DNA of 64,000 nucleotides from Dehalococcoidia bacterium (GTDB lineage: Bacteria; Chloroflexota; Dehalococcoidia; Lucifugimonadales; UBA1127), in contig OZ244559.1 of NCBI GenBank assembly GCA_965217675.1, forward strand, positions 2,243,216 to 2,307,215. The letters run 5' to 3'. Positions 11,979 to 63,520 of the stretch are shown here, piece by piece (position 1 is the stretch's first letter; the number at the start of each line of letters is the position of its first letter). The notes under the pieces are model-generated. The model worked only from the letters and a program-made list of their open reading frames with translations, was not told the origin of the DNA and did not search any database. A program made the position numbers and the translations under genes.

Positions 11979-12051
11979 CCGTTCGCCCTGAGCCCGTCGA
12001 GGGGTCGCTTGAACGCCACGGGAGTCCGTTCGCCCTGAGCCTGTCGAAGGG
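11979..12051 (-). repeat. Two copies of dispersed repeat family A (reverse orientation) between the aldolase and dehydrogenase genes
   Basis: CCGTTCGCCCTGAGCCCGTCGAGGGG lies at 11979-12004 and CCGTTCGCCCTGAGCCTGTCGAAGGG at 12026-12051. Both are preceded by GGGAGT, and the period is 47 bp. Confidence 0.85.
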
Positions 12052-34975: not shown

Positions 34976-36202
34976 CTAACGTTGGCGTCCCAACAGCCGA
35001 GACAGCTCTGCCAAAGCCGGGTGACTGGCGCCCGCCGCCGAGGGCATTTTCTCATACCGCTCAAGCAGCTCCGACTCTGAAAATTGCTGGGGCCAGTCCA
35101 AGTTGACGGAAATCCGGTCACCCTGCATTTCCAGGACGGAGAGATTGAATAGGCCTGCTATGTCACGCCCATACGCCTTTGCGGGATGCTTGAGACTCGA
35201 ATAGTACGGCATCGACTGTAGTACCCAGTCTTCTGGGCTGAGAGGTCCTGCGTTCAGCAGTAGATTAAGAGTCAGCAATTGCCGTTCGGCCAACGCCCGA
35301 CGGCGAGGGCTACGGAGCTTGCTGAACAACGACTGGGCAAACTCCCGGAAAAGCAGGCGCTTTGTGTGCGTCGTGACCTCCTGGACCAGTGCGCTGCAAC
35401 GCTGCGTCACCGCTGGGAGGCTGAAAGTCAAGAACGGCGTGAGGTCGTGGCCTCTCCTTCGCGACTCATATAGAGCTGCAAGATATGCACCCTGGTTCTC
35501 GTAATAGTAGTTGGAGAGGCTAACCATCACCATGTCATTGACCCCCGCCTCCCGCAGCATGAACGCCTCCAAGGCACGGGCAGTGCGGCCATTGCCGTCA
35601 TCAAATGGATGCATAGCGCCGATGTGATAGTGGGCAGCCATTGCCTGGATGATGCGGTCGTGTCCGCGGAATTCCCCAGCAATAGCCTGACAGAGCGCCT
35701 CAAGAACTGCAGCAGTCTCATCTCCACCCTCCGCACCACGGCAGAGAGGGGACCCGAAGGTGACGTTGGACCCGGTGCGACGCAGTTCGCCGGGCACGCA
35801 GTGATCATCGTCGCAGCCGGTAACTATGCGACGGTGGATGTCGAGTACCAACTGCGCGGTCACCGGAAGGTCATTGGGGAGGGAACGCAGCCAACGGTAG
35901 GTCGCATCGGCTGAGCGGAGCTGCCGTTGAGAGTGGTTGAGATTGGCAATTACAGCAGTTGGGTCCAGAGCTTGGGCTTGCTCCTGCGGTGTGAATGCCG
36001 CTCCCTCGATCCGTGTCGTGCCCACCACCTCCAACCGTAGCTGCTCCTCATGGACTTGTTCGATCCATTGAGGCAAATAGGGCATCTGTTTCAGAACGCC
36101 CGCCGCAGTCTTAGCTTCAATCAGCAACCGAGCTATAGCCATGACGTCGTAGCGGACCCAAGGATCCGGCTGCACGTAGAGACTTGCACTTAGCGTTGTC
36201 AT
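34976..36202 (-). CDS. Fic/DOC (Fido) family protein, probable AMP-transferase with an intramolecular inhibitory helix
   Basis: ORF 34976..36202 (408 aa). It has the canonical Fic motif HPFDDGNGRTARAL and an upstream TTRIEG matching the [ST]xxxE[GN] inhibitory motif. The gene is visibly less GC-rich than its neighbours. Confidence 0.9.
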   Translation of the reverse strand: MTTLSASLYVQPDPWVRYDVMAIARLLIEAKTAAGVLKQMPYLPQWIEQVHEEQLRLEVVGTTRIEGAAFTPQEQAQALDPTAVIANLNHSQRQLRSADATYRWLRSLPNDLPVTAQLVLDIHRRIVTGCDDDHCVPGELRRTGSNVTFGSPLCRGAEGGDETAAVLEALCQAIAGEFRGHDRIIQAMAAHYHIGAMHPFDDGNGRTARALEAFMLREAGVNDMVMVSLSNYYYENQGAYLAALYESRRRGHDLTPFLTFSLPAVTQRCSALVQEVTTHTKRLLFREFAQSLFSKLRSPRRRALAERQLLTLNLLLNAGPLSPEDWVLQSMPYYSSLKHPAKAYGRDIAGLFNLSVLEMQGDRISVNLDWPQQFSESELLERYEKMPSAAGASHPALAELSRLLGRQR

Positions 36203-39121: not shown

Positions 39122-40855
39122 GTGGCAACGGCACAGACAAACCCTGACTTGCTCTATCAGCCGGATGAGCAGCCTCCCCATTTGGCGTCGCTCGGCCTGG
39201 GCTTTCAGAGCGTCATGGGCCGGCTGGCGGCGATGGCGGCGACCGCATCCATCATAGCCGCGGCAGGAGGGCAGTCCGACAGCTACCTGTCATGGATCTT
39301 CTTTTCGGCGTTGGTCGTTTGTGGGCTGGGCACCAGCCTCCAGATTTACCGGATTTGGCGGTTCGGGTCAGGGTACGCGCTCAGCATAGTCTCCGGTACT
39401 GCGTTTATCGCGGTCTGCACCAGCGCGCTGTTGGAGGGCGGGCCGGCGATGCTGTCCAGCCTCATCGTCGTGTCAGCGGTGATCCAGTTCTTCCTGATCT
39501 CGCGGCTCTCGTTATTACGCCGGATTCTCACGCCGGTGGTGGCCGGCACGGTACTCATGCTGCTGGCGGCCACGAACTTGACGGTGGTGATGGGCAGGCT
39601 GTCGGACGTGCCGGAGGGGGCGTCGCTTGCCAGCGCTCCCATCGTCGCCGGCGTCACGTTGGTTGCTCTGTTGTCGCTGAGGCTGTTCGCCTCGGCGAAG
39701 CTGCAGCAATGGGCCCCGATCATCGCGATCCTTTTGGGCGGCGCGTTGGCAGTCCCGTTGGGTCTGTACGACCTGAGCAACGTCGCGGCGGCGGCCTGGG
39801 TCGGGATCCCCGAAGTCACTTGGGCCGGGTTCGACCTCAGCTTTGGCGCGTCGTTCTGGGCGTTACTGCCGGGGTTCGTCATCGTCAACCTCGCGTTGGC
39901 CGTCAACTCCACCAGCGACAGCGTCATCATTCAACAAATAGCGTGGCGCAGGCCGCGGGCCACTGATTTTCGGATGGTCCAGGGGGGACACTTTCTCGGC
40001 GTGCTGACCAATTTGCTCGCCGCCCTCGTGGGGACGCTGCCGAACAATATCGGCGCAGCCAGTTCGGCGCGGGTCGTCCTCACCGGGGTCGCCGCCCGGC
40101 GCGTCGGCCTGTACGGCGGCGCCATTCTGATAGCCGTGGCGTTTTCACCCAAGCTGGTAGCCCTCCTCATCGCCATTCCCCGTCCTGCGCTGGTGGCCTA
40201 CATGCTGTTCATGCTGTCTCTGCTCTTTGTGCAGGGCATGAGCACCGTTACCCGTGAGGGGTTGAGCGGGCGGAGGGCATCTGTAGTGGGAATCTCCCTC
40301 TGGATAGGACTGGGCATTCAGAATGATCTGATCTTCCCGGACCTTCTTACCGGTACGCTTGGGACATTTCTCGGCAGCGGCATGACCATGGGCGCCCTCT
40401 CGATCCTTCTGCTCAATATGTTGATGGAGGGGACCTCTTCCCGGGCCAAGCGTCTGAAGGTGGCGATGGGCCCCTCCGCCCTGCCCGAGATCGACGCGTT
40501 CCTGCAGGAGTATGCAACACAGACCGGATGGAACGACGAGTCCACCGACAGACTGCGTGCGGTAGGTGAGGAGACTGTGTCGAGTCTGCTGCCGGACGGC
40601 GACCTCGCGGCAAGCGATCGGCGAAACCTGACGCTCAGCGTGCGCCGCTCCGACGACAAGCTTGAACTGGAGTTCATGACCACTTCCGACGAGGAGAATC
40701 TGGAAGACCGATTGGCGTATCTGAGCGATCAGCCCGAGATCGGCATCGAGCGGGAAGTCTCATACCGCCTGCTGCAACACTATGCGTCGTCAGTCCAGCA
40801 CCGCAAGTACCACAACATCGACATCGTCACCGTGGAGGTCAAGGGAAGTCGCTGA
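39122..40855 (+). CDS. NCS2 (nucleobase:cation symporter-2 / xanthine-uracil permease) family transporter with an extra cytoplasmic C-terminal domain of about 140 aa
   Basis: ORF 39122..40855 (GTG start, 577 aa). About 430 aa of polytopic permease come first. A soluble tail follows (KRLKVAMGPSALPEIDAFLQEY...RLRAVGEETVSSLL...LTLSVRRSDDKLELEFMTTSDE...IVTVEV). Its secondary-structure pattern resembles RsbW/SpoIIAB-type GHKL domains, but it lacks their N and G boxes. Confidence 0.75.
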   Translation: MATAQTNPDLLYQPDEQPPHLASLGLGFQSVMGRLAAMAATASIIAAAGGQSDSYLSWIFFSALVVCGLGTSLQIYRIWRFGSGYALSIVSGTAFIAVCTSALLEGGPAMLSSLIVVSAVIQFFLISRLSLLRRILTPVVAGTVLMLLAATNLTVVMGRLSDVPEGASLASAPIVAGVTLVALLSLRLFASAKLQQWAPIIAILLGGALAVPLGLYDLSNVAAAAWVGIPEVTWAGFDLSFGASFWALLPGFVIVNLALAVNSTSDSVIIQQIAWRRPRATDFRMVQGGHFLGVLTNLLAALVGTLPNNIGAASSARVVLTGVAARRVGLYGGAILIAVAFSPKLVALLIAIPRPALVAYMLFMLSLLFVQGMSTVTREGLSGRRASVVGISLWIGLGIQNDLIFPDLLTGTLGTFLGSGMTMGALSILLLNMLMEGTSSRAKRLKVAMGPSALPEIDAFLQEYATQTGWNDESTDRLRAVGEETVSSLLPDGDLAASDRRNLTLSVRRSDDKLELEFMTTSDEENLEDRLAYLSDQPEIGIEREVSYRLLQHYASSVQHRKYHNIDIVTVEVKGSR

Positions 40856-48692: not shown

Positions 48693-49244
48693 CCCTTCGA
48701 CAGGCTCAGGGCGAACGGGGCGAGGGGGGGGGCTGTGGGGTGAGGTTCCCGCTGCTGCGGGACGGGCGATTCGCGAATCGCCCCTACGGACTGGGTTGGC
48801 GTTCGGGGTTTCGCGACGGCGGTGGTAGTGGGGTTGCCCCTCTTTGCCCCGCCCCTCTGGATTCCTGCCTTCGCAGGAATGACGAGAGGGGGCGCAGGAA
48901 TGACGATGGGGGGGCAGGAATGACGAGAGCGGGGCGCGGGAATGACGACGCGGGGGGGCAGGGAGGCCCTTCGACAGGCTCAGGGCGAACGGGCGGGGGG
49001 GGGGGGGGGCTGAGGGGTGAGGTTCCCGCTGCTGCGGGACGGGCGATTCGTGAATCGCCCCTACGGACTGGGTTGGCGTTCGGGGTTTCGCGACGGCGGT
49101 GGTAGTGGGGTTGCCCCTCTTTGCCCCGCCCCTCTGGATTCCTGCCTTCGCAGGAATGACGAGAGTGGGGCAGGGATGGCGATAGCGGGGCACGAATGAC
49201 GATGCGGTGGTGGCGAGGATGATGATGAGGTGGTCGCGGGGCGG
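48693..49244 (+). repeat. Two tandem copies (about 274 and 278 bp) of a composite unit built from repeat families A, B, C and D
   Basis: Unit 1 spans 48693-48966 and unit 2 spans 48967-49244. Each starts with CCCTTCGACAGGCTCAGGGCGAACGG, followed by a G-run. Next come GAGGTTCCCGCTGCTGCGGGAC and GGGCGATTCG(C/T)GAATCGCCCCTACGG. Each ends with ...CCCCTCTGGATTCCTGCCTTCGCAGGAATGACGA. Unit 1 ends with 3 extra GC(A/G)GGAATGACGA half-repeats. Confidence 0.9.
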
Positions 49245-49428
49245 CCCTTCGACAGGCTCAGGGCGAACGGGGCGCGGGGGCGCGGGTATGGCGGGGGCGG
49301 CCCTTCGACAGGCTCAGGGCGAACGGGGGCGGGGGCGCGGGTATGGCGCGGCGCGGCCCTTCGACAGGCTCAGGGCGAACGGCAGGCGGGGGCGCGGGGA
49401 GGCCCTTCGACAGGCTCAGGGCGAACGG
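49245..49428 (+). repeat. Array of four family A repeats at 56/56/46-bp spacing
   Basis: Core 26-mers lie at 49245, 49301, 49357 and 49403. The intervening G-rich segments are themselves near-identical (GGCGCGGGGGCGCGGGTATGGCG...). Confidence 0.9.
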
Positions 49429-52585: not shown

Positions 52586-52879
52586 ATGGTTGCAAAACCC
52601 CTGCCGGACGGGCTGGTTCCCAGCGGAAGCTCACCGGCATTCACCGCTGCCACCATGCCAGACGCGCTCCGGCGGGAGCACGCGTTGGGCACTGGACATT
52701 GGGGATTGCTGCACGTGCTCGAGGGTAGCGTCACATTTGTTGACATGGGCGCAGGCAGCGAGCAACTGGTCTCGGCGCCTGGGACCGTTCCCATCCACCC
52801 TCAGTCGCCGCACCGGCTGATTGTCAGCGGTCCCGTGAGGGTTCGAATCGACTTCTTTGTCGAACAGAACCCCGCCTGA
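52586..52879 (+). CDS. DUF1971 (YeaR / TehB N-terminal-like) cupin-type protein
   Basis: ORF 52586..52879. MPDALRREHALGTGHWGLLHVLEGSVTF and the C-terminal RIDFFV match the DUF1971 pattern. Confidence 0.65.
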   Translation: MVAKPLPDGLVPSGSSPAFTAATMPDALRREHALGTGHWGLLHVLEGSVTFVDMGAGSEQLVSAPGTVPIHPQSPHRLIVSGPVRVRIDFFVEQNPA

Positions 52880-52903
52880 GAACGGCCGCCGTTCCGCCCT
52901 CGA

Positions 52904-53161
52904 CTAGAACAAGCTGCCCGTCGTCGCGAAGGCCGAGCCTGCCGGCAGCGTGGCGACCTCGAGCGAAATGCGGGCGCCACGCTCGCGGCCGCGACTGTAG
53001 AGCTGGCCCACCATGCGAGCGGCCTCCTCCGCGTCGACGCAGAGCGACTTGCCGCTAGCCACGCCGGTGCCCTCGTCGAGGACGCTGACGCGCAGCTGGT
53101 CCTCAAAGCCCTCGAGCCGCTGGAGCTTGATCTGGATGCGCTCTTCCGTCATGGTTGCCAT
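52904..53161 (-). CDS. Small hypothetical protein (85 aa)
   Basis: This is part of ORF 52904..53227. I place the start at ATG 53161, which has a GGAGG RBS 9 nt upstream (MATMTEERIQIKLQRLEGFEDQL...). The longer start at 53227 would lie upstream of the predicted promoter. Confidence 0.45.
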   Translation of the reverse strand: MATMTEERIQIKLQRLEGFEDQLRVSVLDEGTGVASGKSLCVDAEEAARMVGQLYSRGRERGARISLEVATLPAGSAFATTGSLF

Positions 53162-53193
53162 TTCGCTTGCCTCCGTTCGGAATGTCTGGAGGT

Positions 53194-53234
53194 ATTTTAG
53201 AACATAGTTTCTTAGTTTGTCAAACATGTGTTCT
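53194..53234 (-). promoter_or_regulatory. Near-consensus promoter overlapped by two LexA (GAAC-N4-GTTC)-like dyads
   Basis: The minus strand reads TTGACA (53223-53218), an 18-nt spacer, then TAAAAT (53199-53194). The dyads are AGAACATAGTTTCT (53199-53212) and CAAACATGTGTTCT (53221-53234). Each has one half-site mismatch, and their centres are 22 bp apart. Confidence 0.4.
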
Positions 53235-53240
53235 GAAACG

Positions 53241-53501
53241 AAGGGGCGGCGGGGCTTGGGAAGGGCCTCGATAGCAGGAGGCGAGGTTCCCGCCTGCGCG
53301 GGAACGACGGGGTAGGCGTACGCGGGGGTGCGCGGGGGCTGGTGGTGAAGGGAGACCCTTCGACAGGCTCAGGGCCAACGGATTCGCGAAACGGGCCTGT
53401 AACGGATTGGGTTAGGTCGTCTTGCGTCGCGATACGGTCTGCAGGGACGGCACGAGGGACTTGAAGTACTCGTAGGCGTGGGAGGCGCGGCGCTCCCAGT
53501 C
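53241..53501. repeat. Left copy of a direct repeat of about 230-260 bp flanking the S51 peptidase gene
   Basis: It aligns with 54364-54585 through AAGGGGCG..., GAGGTTCCCGCCTGCGCGGGAAC, family A (53356-53381) and GGATTGGGTTAGGTCGTCTTGCG...CGCTCCCAGTC. This left copy carries an extra insert of about 40 bp. Confidence 0.85.
53412..53501 (-). pseudogene. Duplicated 3' fragment (29 codons + stop) of the class II aldolase gene
   Basis: The reverse translation is DWERRASHAYEYFKSLVPSLQTVSRRKTT*. The aldolase C-terminus is DWERRASHAYEYFRSLVPSLQTVARRKTT*. It has no start codon and lies 3 nt from the S51 stop codon. Confidence 0.75.
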
Positions 53502-53504
53502 TCG

Positions 53505-54206
53505 CTATTTGATCTGTTGCGCATTCAGAGGAGTTTCCACTACCTGTCCCCCTGTCAGCTCGACACGGTAGGCTGCCGCTCCAACCCTCCCGCTGACCAC
53601 TTCAGACACCTCGGTCCCCGTGAAGTGTATCGCGGCATCATCGTCAATGGCATATCCGGGTGGGAACCCTTCAGAAATGAGGCTGTGGTAGAGGGGCCGG
53701 CGCTGCTCTTCGCCATCGTAGTGGGGGCAGTGGGAGCCTGGAAGGAATCCCAAACCGTCGTACAGAGACTTGAGTTCGTTCACGTCGAAGGAGTCAGTGG
53801 TGCCGCATTCAAACCAGCAAAGGGACCCTGCGCTTCCACCGCACAGCACAATGCCGGCGTCCCAGGCCTCCTTCAACGCCAGGTCGACGCCGTGGGCCCG
53901 CCATACGGCCAGTAGGTTGGCTGTGTTGCCGCCCAATACGAGGATGACGTCCTGGCTGAGGAGATAGTCTCGGATGTCTCGCACCGTGCGGCTGAACAGC
54001 TCCAAGTGGGAGGGCTCGCAGCGAGAGGCCGGAAAGTTGCTGTAAAACCGGAGGAGATTGGCTGGGGAGTCACCGGTGGCGGTGGGAATGCAGCATACCC
54101 TGGGCCGGTCCTTGCCCGCTAGAGACAGGACATAGTTGTGTAGCGGGTGCATCCCGACCGCGACCGGTCTGGTTCCTCCGAATGCGACAATGTGCTTTCC
54201 TTCCAT
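53505..54206 (-). CDS. Peptidase S51 family (dipeptidase E / cyanophycinase-like) protein
   Basis: This is part of ORF 53505..54269, with the start at ATG 54206 (MEGKHIVAFGG...). VILVLGGNTANLL and CGGSAGSLCWFE (nucleophile Ser region) are present. Confidence 0.8.
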   Translation of the reverse strand: MEGKHIVAFGGTRPVAVGMHPLHNYVLSLAGKDRPRVCCIPTATGDSPANLLRFYSNFPASRCEPSHLELFSRTVRDIRDYLLSQDVILVLGGNTANLLAVWRAHGVDLALKEAWDAGIVLCGGSAGSLCWFECGTTDSFDVNELKSLYDGLGFLPGSHCPHYDGEEQRRPLYHSLISEGFPPGYAIDDDAAIHFTGTEVSEVVSGRVGAAAYRVELTGGQVVETPLNAQQIK

Positions 54207-54363
54207 GCTCTCCCCACTTCGCAAGCCAAGCAGCCAATCGGTGTGCAGCCAACGGAGAATACCATACAACTTGAACCTACGGGCTGAGGGCAGCGCCGGA
54301 CTGCAGGTCCAGCACGAACCTCAACGCGAGGTCTCCTGGTTTGGCAGGCATTCGTTTTGAATC

Positions 54364-54585
54364 AAGGGGCGTGGTGGGTCTTGCAAAGGGCCTCGATGGC
54401 GGAGGGCGAGGTTCCCTCCTGCGCGGGAACGACGGGTAGGGCGCCCAATCCGTTTGTATGCGCCCCTTCGACAGGCTCAGGGCGAACGGATTGGGTTAGG
54501 TCGTCTTGCGGCGGGCGACGGTCTGAAGGGACGGAACGAGGGAGCGGAAGTACTCGTAGGCGTGGGAGGCGCGGCGCTCCCAGTC
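54364..54585. repeat. Right copy of the direct repeat flanking the S51 peptidase gene (includes the authentic aldolase 3' end)
   Basis: See 53241-53501. This copy contains family B (54408-54430) and family A (54464-54489). Confidence 0.85.
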
Positions 54586-63395: not shown

Positions 63396-63520
63396 CCCTT
63401 CGACAGGCTCAGGGCGAACGGACTTGGGAAGCGCGCGTGCGGTGGGGAGTGGCGCGCGAGGGCGGGGGTGATGCGGCGGCTGCTGGTGGAAGGCCCTTCG
63501 ACAGGCTCAGGGCGAACGGA
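63396..63520 (+). repeat. Two family A repeats (63396-63421, 63495-63520) in the vWA / OCD intergenic region
   Basis: Both copies match CCCTTCGACAGGCTCAGGGCGAACGG exactly. A degenerate family D element follows at about 63533-63565. Confidence 0.85.

Follow-up and report, generated by a model that had tools for sequence, protein, structure and literature searches.

A small conserved gene of Dehalococcoidia with a near-consensus promoter overlapped by two candidate LexA-type operators

What is known of the SOS response beyond the core repair genes derives almost entirely from a handful of cultured phyla. Annotation usually misses the effectors that halt division or adjust RecA and LexA, which are small and evolve fast. 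SulA has about 170 amino acids and a RecA-like fold, DinI is an acidic RecA modulator of 81 amino acids, and DdrR is a co-repressor in Acinetobacter. In E. coli, the lexA promoter and the colicin promoters carry tandem SOS boxes, an arrangement that gives tight, late-induced repression. The Dehalococcoidia, most of them uncultured, are plentiful in marine and subsurface environments. Apart from the LexA site of Dehalococcoides, which Fernandez de Henestrosa and co-workers reportedly determined by experiment to be GAAC-N4-GTTC (J Bacteriol 2002, 184:6073), little work has been done on how they respond to DNA damage. D. mccartyi encodes LexA (DET0274), so that the class includes this repressor.

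The closest described counterparts of the promoter analysed here are the LexA operators of this type, also called Cheo boxes. The Gram-positive LexA consensus is CGAACRNRYGTTYC, and one to three boxes are present per lexA promoter (PMC2248561). In C. difficile, the boxes of lexA, recA and ruvC have the form GAAC-N4-GTTT, and SPR showed binding of purified LexA to the operator of recA, AGAACAAATGTTTG (PMC4234289). Paired boxes are also found in phage GIL01, where dinBox1 and dinBox1b lie in the P1 promoter (PMC4551915).

The locus described here lies in a 64,000-nucleotide (64-kb) stretch of Dehalococcoidia DNA, called the window below, in which a small gene on the minus strand is preceded by a strong promoter and two dyads of the Cheo-box type. 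The features, all on the minus strand, are as follows.

52904..53161, minus strand: coding sequence of the 85-residue protein, stop codon included; supported by conserved homologues, dN/dS and predicted fold
53170..53174, minus strand: Shine-Dalgarno sequence GGAGG, 8 nt before the ATG; GGAGG or GGAG in every orthologous leader
53186..53187, minus strand: predicted transcription start, A or G, inferred 7-8 nt past the -10 hexamer; leader of about 26 nt
53194..53199, minus strand: -10 hexamer TAAAAT, from the promoter scan; TAAACT, TATACT or TATTAT in orthologues
53199..53212, minus strand: proximal dyad (operator 2), AGAAACTATGTTCT on the coding strand, centre near -19.5; candidate operator
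53218..53223, minus strand: -35 hexamer TTGACA, 18-nt spacer to the -10 hexamer (17 nt in the orthologous loci L009-L011, L018 and L019)
53221..53234, minus strand: distal dyad (operator 1), AGAACACATGTTTG on the coding strand, centre near -41.5; candidate operator
52872..52885, minus strand: weak terminator-like hairpin, 5 pairs and a poor T tract; low confidence

The open reading frame, listed as uncharacterised in a preliminary description of this DNA, turned out to be a real and conserved gene. Its 85-residue product has 34 homologues with 57-98% identity, the alignment of which revealed a conserved start context (M-[AT]-T-[ML]-T) and 17 invariant columns, and the dN/dS values against 14 orthologues range from 0.07 to 0.37, at dS values of up to 0.5-2.5. 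A sceptical reading would be that the frame is not a gene at all and that the promoter drives either a small non-coding RNA or a 107-residue frame beginning at 53227; the frame is indeed short and without family assignment, and in one database entry (P0004) the protein begins at a start codon further upstream. The 107-residue frame was rejected since it is not conserved and is interrupted by in-frame TAA or TAG codons in L005, L007 and L015, and no RNA family was detected with Rfam. The low dN/dS values, obtained where synonymous change is saturated, as well as the conserved start context, the conserved GGAGG and a confident structure prediction, likewise speak against such a reading, which is hardly credible and, in view of the in-frame stops and the dN/dS values, effectively refuted.

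The small protein had seven genome matches, all in Dehalococcoidia/Chloroflexota metagenome-assembled genomes, which bears out the earlier guess of a Chloroflexota (Dehalococcoides-type) lineage; three of them are complete chromosomes of 2.6-2.9 Mb (OZ252245.1, OX638292.1 and OZ220679.1). More copies were present in ENA, Logan and JGI metagenomes, including a marine Tara Oceans assembly, while a scan of metagenome contigs for orthologues yielded one short locus only (L014) and a profile search of 1.84 billion representative proteins recovered approximately six genuine clusters. Judged from these searches, the protein is a narrow orphan family limited to a Dehalococcoidia sublineage. A few homologues (P0031 from JGI, P0008, P0010, P0012 and P0029) have aberrant C-termini, one of them being named ribosomal protein L18; these most likely stem from frameshifted or chimeric short metagenome contigs, and are not real fusions.

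The gene resides in a conserved core block and not in a mobile element, with a conserved order of formate-dehydrogenase-like genes, a class II aldolase gene, the small gene, an F420H2-quinone-reductase-like gene, a glyoxalase gene, leuD and leuC. In L013 the neighbourhood differs while the promoter-operator block is intact, and no transcription factor is conserved beside the small gene in the related loci. That the cassette moves with its gene, with no conserved linked regulator, points to a global repressor acting in trans. As a separate observation on L013 (3072-6425; ERZ25072823 contig_17), the small gene there lies approximately 3.5 kb from a cluster of dnaB, DnaB_2 (DnaD-like) and IstB/DnaC-like genes.

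On the upstream side, the window contains a direct repeat of about 220-260 nt (53243-53501 and 54368-54585), 82-97% identical in three collinear blocks, which flanks a peptidase S51 gene (53505-54269, minus strand). In the downstream copy, positions 53413-53500 form a pseudo-3' end of the class II aldolase gene (encoding ...WERRASHAYEYFKSLVPSLQTVSRRKTT followed by a stop), and this copy stops 8 nt upstream of the conserved operator block. The S51 gene occupies the same place in L001 and L017 and is missing from L015/L016 and L009, and it seems to have arrived by an insertion in which the aldolase-proximal intergenic region was duplicated. A dispersed intergenic repeat with the core CCCTTCGACAGGCTCAGGGC occurs in 12 copies in the 64 kb (10 of them exact), where none would be expected, at 11985-12051, 48693-49422, 53356-53375, 54464-54483 and 63396-63513; the tandem cluster at 49245-49422 creates spurious open reading frames that read 'PFDRLRANG' or 'LSLSKG'. 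A Fic/DOC-family gene (34976-36202, minus strand) is located in a stretch of lower GC3 (0.65) and is unrelated to the small gene.

The minus-strand promoter TTGACA-18-TAAAAT that had been proposed upstream of the gene was confirmed by a promoter scan, in which TTGACA (53223-53218) and TAAAAT (53199-53194), separated by 18 nt, agree with the consensus at 11 of 12 positions. It was the top-scoring of the two promoter sites found in the scanned 2.5 kb, where 0.4 sites were expected, and it lies in a local A+T-rich island (48% G+C, compared to approximately 65% for the genome). Up to the start codon, the minus strand reads ...TTTC AGAACACATGTTTGACAAACTAAGAAACTATGTTCTAAAAT ACCTCCAGACATTCCGAACGGAGGCAAGCGAA ATG..., with the ATG at 53161. 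At the other end of the gene, the weak hairpin listed above falls in the 24 nt that separate the small gene from a convergent DUF1971 gene.

Directly after the -10 hexamer, the sequence CCTCC could pair with the Shine-Dalgarno GGAGG (window 53170-53192, minus strand), and a CCUCC/GGAGG leader hairpin of -8 to -11 kcal/mol was predicted in most orthologues. The z-scores were weak (-0.6 to -2.2) and RNAalifold gave no consensus structure over the orthologous leaders, and a leader hairpin sequestering the Shine-Dalgarno sequence was consequently rejected as a demonstrated feature. The CCUCC probably lies upstream of the inferred transcription start, and CCTCC may be a G+C-rich discriminator instead of a hairpin arm.

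The two imperfect GAAC-N4-GTTC dyads noted in the preliminary description are present in the sequence as stated, with their centres 22 bp apart and one mismatch each to the core; on the plus strand, the 14-mers read AGAACATAGTTTCT (53199-53212) and CAAACATGTGTTCT (53221-53234). Relative to the inferred transcription start they span approximately -48 to -35 and -26 to -13, so that candidate operators lie over the core promoter as they do in LexA-regulated promoters. The proximal dyad abuts the -10 hexamer as had been said, its last T being common to both (1-nt overlap), while the statement that the distal dyad covers the -35 hexamer was slightly overstated, since it overlaps three of the six bases (TTG).

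Compared to the described operators, the distal dyad AGAACACATGTTTG differs from the C. difficile recA operator AGAACAAATGTTTG inside the N4 only, and it fits CGAACRNRYGTTYC (with GTTY allowed) at all but the two outermost positions, although this consensus is a Gram-positive one and may not be that of the host. The proximal dyad has 4 mismatches over the 13 specified positions of the same consensus, and one of these falls in the 8-base core. The palindromes match GAAC-N4-GTTC imperfectly, yet within the range of validated sites. Like the Cheo-box operators of B. subtilis DinR/LexA, C. difficile recA and D. ethenogenes lexA/uvrA, the dyads have GAAC/GTTC half-sites separated by four bases, an A/T-rich spacer that fits RNRY and a tolerated GTTT variant half, and they likewise overlap a core promoter in a number that falls within the range of one to three boxes. 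Unlike in these operators, the core of both boxes here contains a mismatch, A and T take the place of C and G at the outermost positions, and the gene has no known SOS function.

The second close parallel is offered by the tandem SOS boxes of E. coli lexA, the colicin promoters and GIL01 P1, where, as here, two operators approximately two helical turns apart together cover a strong promoter, with one near-consensus and one degenerate member in some lineages. In contrast to these systems, cooperativity is inferred for the present locus, the spacing among its orthologues is 21-23 bp, and it has no known co-repressor.

The occurrence of such boxes in the window was compared to chance expectation. 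Boxes with at most one mismatch are not enriched (16 seen, 21 expected). A pair 20-24 bp apart was seen once, compared to 0.033 expected per 64-kb window, and a pair was reached in 10 of 300 first-order Markov simulations. Taken alone, the pairing is only suggestive of more than chance, and the decisive evidence is comparative. A single box in the window has a perfect GAAC-N4-GTTC core (40664-40675, TGAACTGGAGTTCA); its spacer is G+C-rich, it falls within the 3' part of a gene of the xanthine/uracil permease family, and it probably arose by chance. With this lone intragenic exception, the earlier remark that the window holds no other such dyad was fair. Further Cheo-like boxes in the window and the related loci were restricted to the orthologous promoters and a few chance sites in coding or G+C-rich sequence. 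A scan of viral contigs with AGAACNNNTGTTTGACAAA gave 67 matches, which is near the chance expectation, and many of these were gene starts of the form 'GGAG..ATGTTTGACAAA'. None of the 67 was accompanied by a second dyad and a -10 hexamer, which argues that the cassette is not a mobile or phage promoter.

The comparative evidence comes from a phylogenetic footprint, an alignment of 20 orthologous upstream regions, 18 of which were anchored (15 of the 18 being distinct). The dyads are conserved in all 20 promoters, in the pattern that would be expected of a GAAC-N4-GTTC dimer operator. The outer half-sites AGAAC and TGTTCT are invariant in 20/20 promoters (2.0 bits each), and the mean conservation from TTTC-AGAAC to the -10 hexamer is 1.35 bits per column, compared to 0.33 in the upstream flank; sequences upstream of -52 cannot be aligned. 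The synonymous divergence of the adjacent coding sequence is considerable (dS 0.2-2.5), with flanking DNA and synonymous sites diverged to saturation. Within the block, the variation is concentrated in the N4 spacers, the stretch between the dyads and the inner half-sites. The spacers found were ACAT, GAAT, ACTT, ATAT, AAAT and GCAT, with a T at position 9 in all promoters, in keeping with the RNRY rule.

The inner half-sites remain GAAC/GTTC-like in most lineages. In the proximal dyad, the inner (left) half is GAAA, GAAT or AAAC depending on the lineage, and three distinct forms, each one change away from GAAC, are what selection for a weak GAAC-like half-site is expected to leave. In the distal dyad, the high-G+C clade has GTTT as the inner (right) half, and the most divergent orthologues, which constitute a low-G+C marine group, have GATT or GAGT; in this group, the better of the two sites is the proximal one. 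The outer half-sites are separated by 26 nt in the 18 anchored promoters, by 25 nt in L019 and by 27 nt in L012, and the centre spacing drifts between 21 and 23 bp. A strict 26-nt gap maintained by compensating indels would fit L009-L011 and L018 and was dropped in view of L019 and L012. The varying gap instead suggests two separate dimer sites approximately two turns apart, and not one rigid element.

Could the footprint merely reflect a strong constitutive promoter under selection, bound by no regulator, the dyad symmetry being coincidental? Contacts with RNA polymerase do explain part of the conservation (TTGACA and TAnAcT), single one-mismatch boxes are not enriched in the window, and both dyads are imperfect. 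Promoter function alone, however, does not explain the invariance of AGAAC, 4-8 nt upstream of the -35 hexamer, or of TGTTC, at -17 to -13, as these elements are not contacted by sigma-70 and correspond neither to an extended -10 nor to an A/T-rich UP element. The freely varying spacers between the half-sites, the three versions of GAAC kept in the weak proximal half and the rarity of a pair at this spacing also argue against a constitutive promoter, which we consider improbable.

If a protein binds the dyads, LexA is the best-supported candidate, and the sequence comparisons make it somewhat more probable than its competitors taken together. The conserved operators found in the orthologous promoters are what a LexA-regulated promoter would be expected to show, and the small gene is thus a probable new, lineage-specific member of the SOS (LexA/Cheo-box) regulon. 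Several findings count against LexA: both dyads depart from a perfect core, the inner half of the distal one decays to GATT/GAGT in the most divergent orthologues, the outer half-sites lie 25 to 27 nt apart, the outermost bases are A and T where the B. subtilis consensus has C and G, the centre at -41.5 would also suit a class II activator, and the gene product resembles no known SOS protein. Neither lexA nor recA was found in the window or in approximately 300 kb of related loci by tblastn with E. coli, B. subtilis and M. tuberculosis queries, so that this DNA offered no lexA, recA or uvrA promoter of the lineage, and in the relatives no lexA lies within 10 kb of the small gene, as judged by tblastn with queries of the same kind. 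A Pfam search of ten large open reading frames of the window identified MutS and no core SOS genes.

A different dimeric regulator with AGAAC/GTTCT half-sites and N4 spacing (of the CRP/FNR, XRE or another family), responding to a stress other than DNA damage, is the main rival, an unlikely yet appreciable possibility. It could either repress, or activate from -41.5 and repress from -19.5. The footprint proves selection on the site and not the identity of the binder, the outer A and T depart from the LexA consensus of B. subtilis, and the protein is without a link to DNA repair. Moreover, a 14-bp geometry of 5-N4-5 is common to the CRP/FNR family, and -41.5 is the position of class II activators. 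On the other hand, the half-sites agree exactly with the Cheo box, the distal dyad equals a validated LexA operator outside the N4, and no other bacterial regulator described with a GAAC-N4-GTTC consensus is known to us. The promoter also has a perfect -35 and a near-perfect -10 hexamer, which are normally missing where a class II activator is needed, and the perfect -35 argues for repression over class II activation.

With LexA as the binder, the following mechanism can be envisaged. The monocistronic gene, which would encode a cytoplasmic protein and has a near-consensus sigma-70-type promoter, would be held shut by a dimeric global repressor, most probably a LexA of Gram-positive or 'Cheo box' specificity (GAAC-N4-GTTC). 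Two dimers centred at about -41.5 and -19.5 would sit approximately two helical turns apart on the same face of the DNA, covering the -35 hexamer, the spacer and the edge of the -10 hexamer, so that RNA polymerase is excluded and transcription is off. Upon DNA damage, self-cleavage of LexA stimulated by RecA would free a very strong promoter, and the short leader and good Shine-Dalgarno sequence would allow a rapid burst of the small protein. By analogy, binding is expected to repress, maybe cooperatively, and the gene to be inducible by damage. From E. coli and Gram-positive precedents, we infer that double operators on a near-consensus promoter would mark a tightly silent function that is induced late or strongly.

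The encoded protein is soluble and acidic (9.1 kDa, pI 5.1, GRAVY -0.10), and a Kyte-Doolittle maximum of 0.99 over a 19-residue window indicates no transmembrane or hydrophobic segment. The AlphaFold2 model (mean pLDDT 80.7) has the order β1-β2-β3-α-β4, with strands at residues 8-15, 23-31 and 34-42, a helix at 44-61, a further strand at 64-71 and a disordered tail at 72-85; the conserved basic residues R15, R24, R59, R61 and R64 are on the surface of the model. Searches of Pfam, NCBIfam, PHROG and PDB sequence profiles gave no family match, and Foldseek searches of PDB and BFVD returned nothing at E<=0.001. The top Foldseek matches were β-β-β-α-β sub-domains with a TM score of about 0.4, from proteins (TsaB/YeaZ, glucokinase and a terminase nuclease) that we take to have RNase-H-like or ASKHA folds.

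A sub-threshold match to HATPase_c (PF02518) was obtained, scoring 14 bits against a cut-off of 26.4 and spanning profile positions 23-77 of 111, and the similarity, over residues 5-63, recurs in 22 of 28 family members with E-values of 0.016-0.07. It stems from a hairpin, 'I.I.L...V.V.DEGTG', that resembles the G1-box region. A GHKL ATPase domain was rejected, since the score is below the cut-off and the DxGxG-like 'LDEGTG' is present without the N and G2 boxes; the similarity is possibly a remnant or a coincidence. In the high-G+C clade, the C-terminal tail (residues 72-85; window 52904-52948) has a conserved hydrophobic ending, ...A[FY]A..GSLF or ...AGLL, which could be a short interaction or degradation motif. 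The marine-group proteins are without this ending and terminate in ...GLIPLN.

The earlier suggestion that the gene might encode a cell-division inhibitor or toxin received no positive support: the protein is soluble with a pI of 5.1, has no match to SulA, YneA, DinI or a toxin, and lexA is not adjacent. A SulA-type inhibitor was rejected, as no Pfam match other than HATPase_c was obtained at E<=10 and the 85-residue protein has a different fold. For membrane inhibitors of the YneA, ChiZ, DivS, SosA or SidA type, the protein lacks a transmembrane segment and a LysM domain, and its gene is not divergent from lexA; a membrane-anchored division inhibitor is therefore less likely. The DinI family was rejected because neither Pfam nor NCBIfam gave a match and no DinI appeared in the PDB fold search. 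LexA-controlled type I toxins (TisB, DinQ or SymE-like) were dismissed as well, the protein being hydrophilic and folded and Rfam finding no RNA.

With the known small SOS proteins (DinI, SulA, YneA, ChiZ, DivS, SosA, SidA and DdrR), the product nevertheless has in common that it is small, lineage-restricted, poorly annotated and preceded by a putative SOS operator, and DinI is similar to it in size and acidity. It differs from them in having no sequence family match and no significant structural neighbour, and the predicted β-β-β-α-β fold is presumably not that of DinI. Our best guess, by analogy with DinI, DdrR and phage gp7, which modulate RecA or LexA-type repressors, is that the soluble protein serves this lineage as an SOS effector or modulator of its own. 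The more specific proposal of a new soluble SOS effector released in a burst, serving as a division or replication checkpoint or as a RecA/LexA modulator, is speculative and rather doubtful. If it is true, the basic residues and the disordered tail with its GSLF/GLL ending would be the interaction determinants. We are not aware of any SOS checkpoint protein reported from Chloroflexota.

The small gene is a candidate for a new class of damage-induced effector, and its strongly conserved, doubly operated promoter offers an entry point to the biology of this lineage, as well as a ready-made reporter of the SOS state for metatranscriptomes. Should the binder not be LexA, the locus would instead define the operator of an unknown global regulator in the lineage. 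The main interest of the finding lies in the handle that it may give on the damage response of the uncultured Dehalococcoidia.
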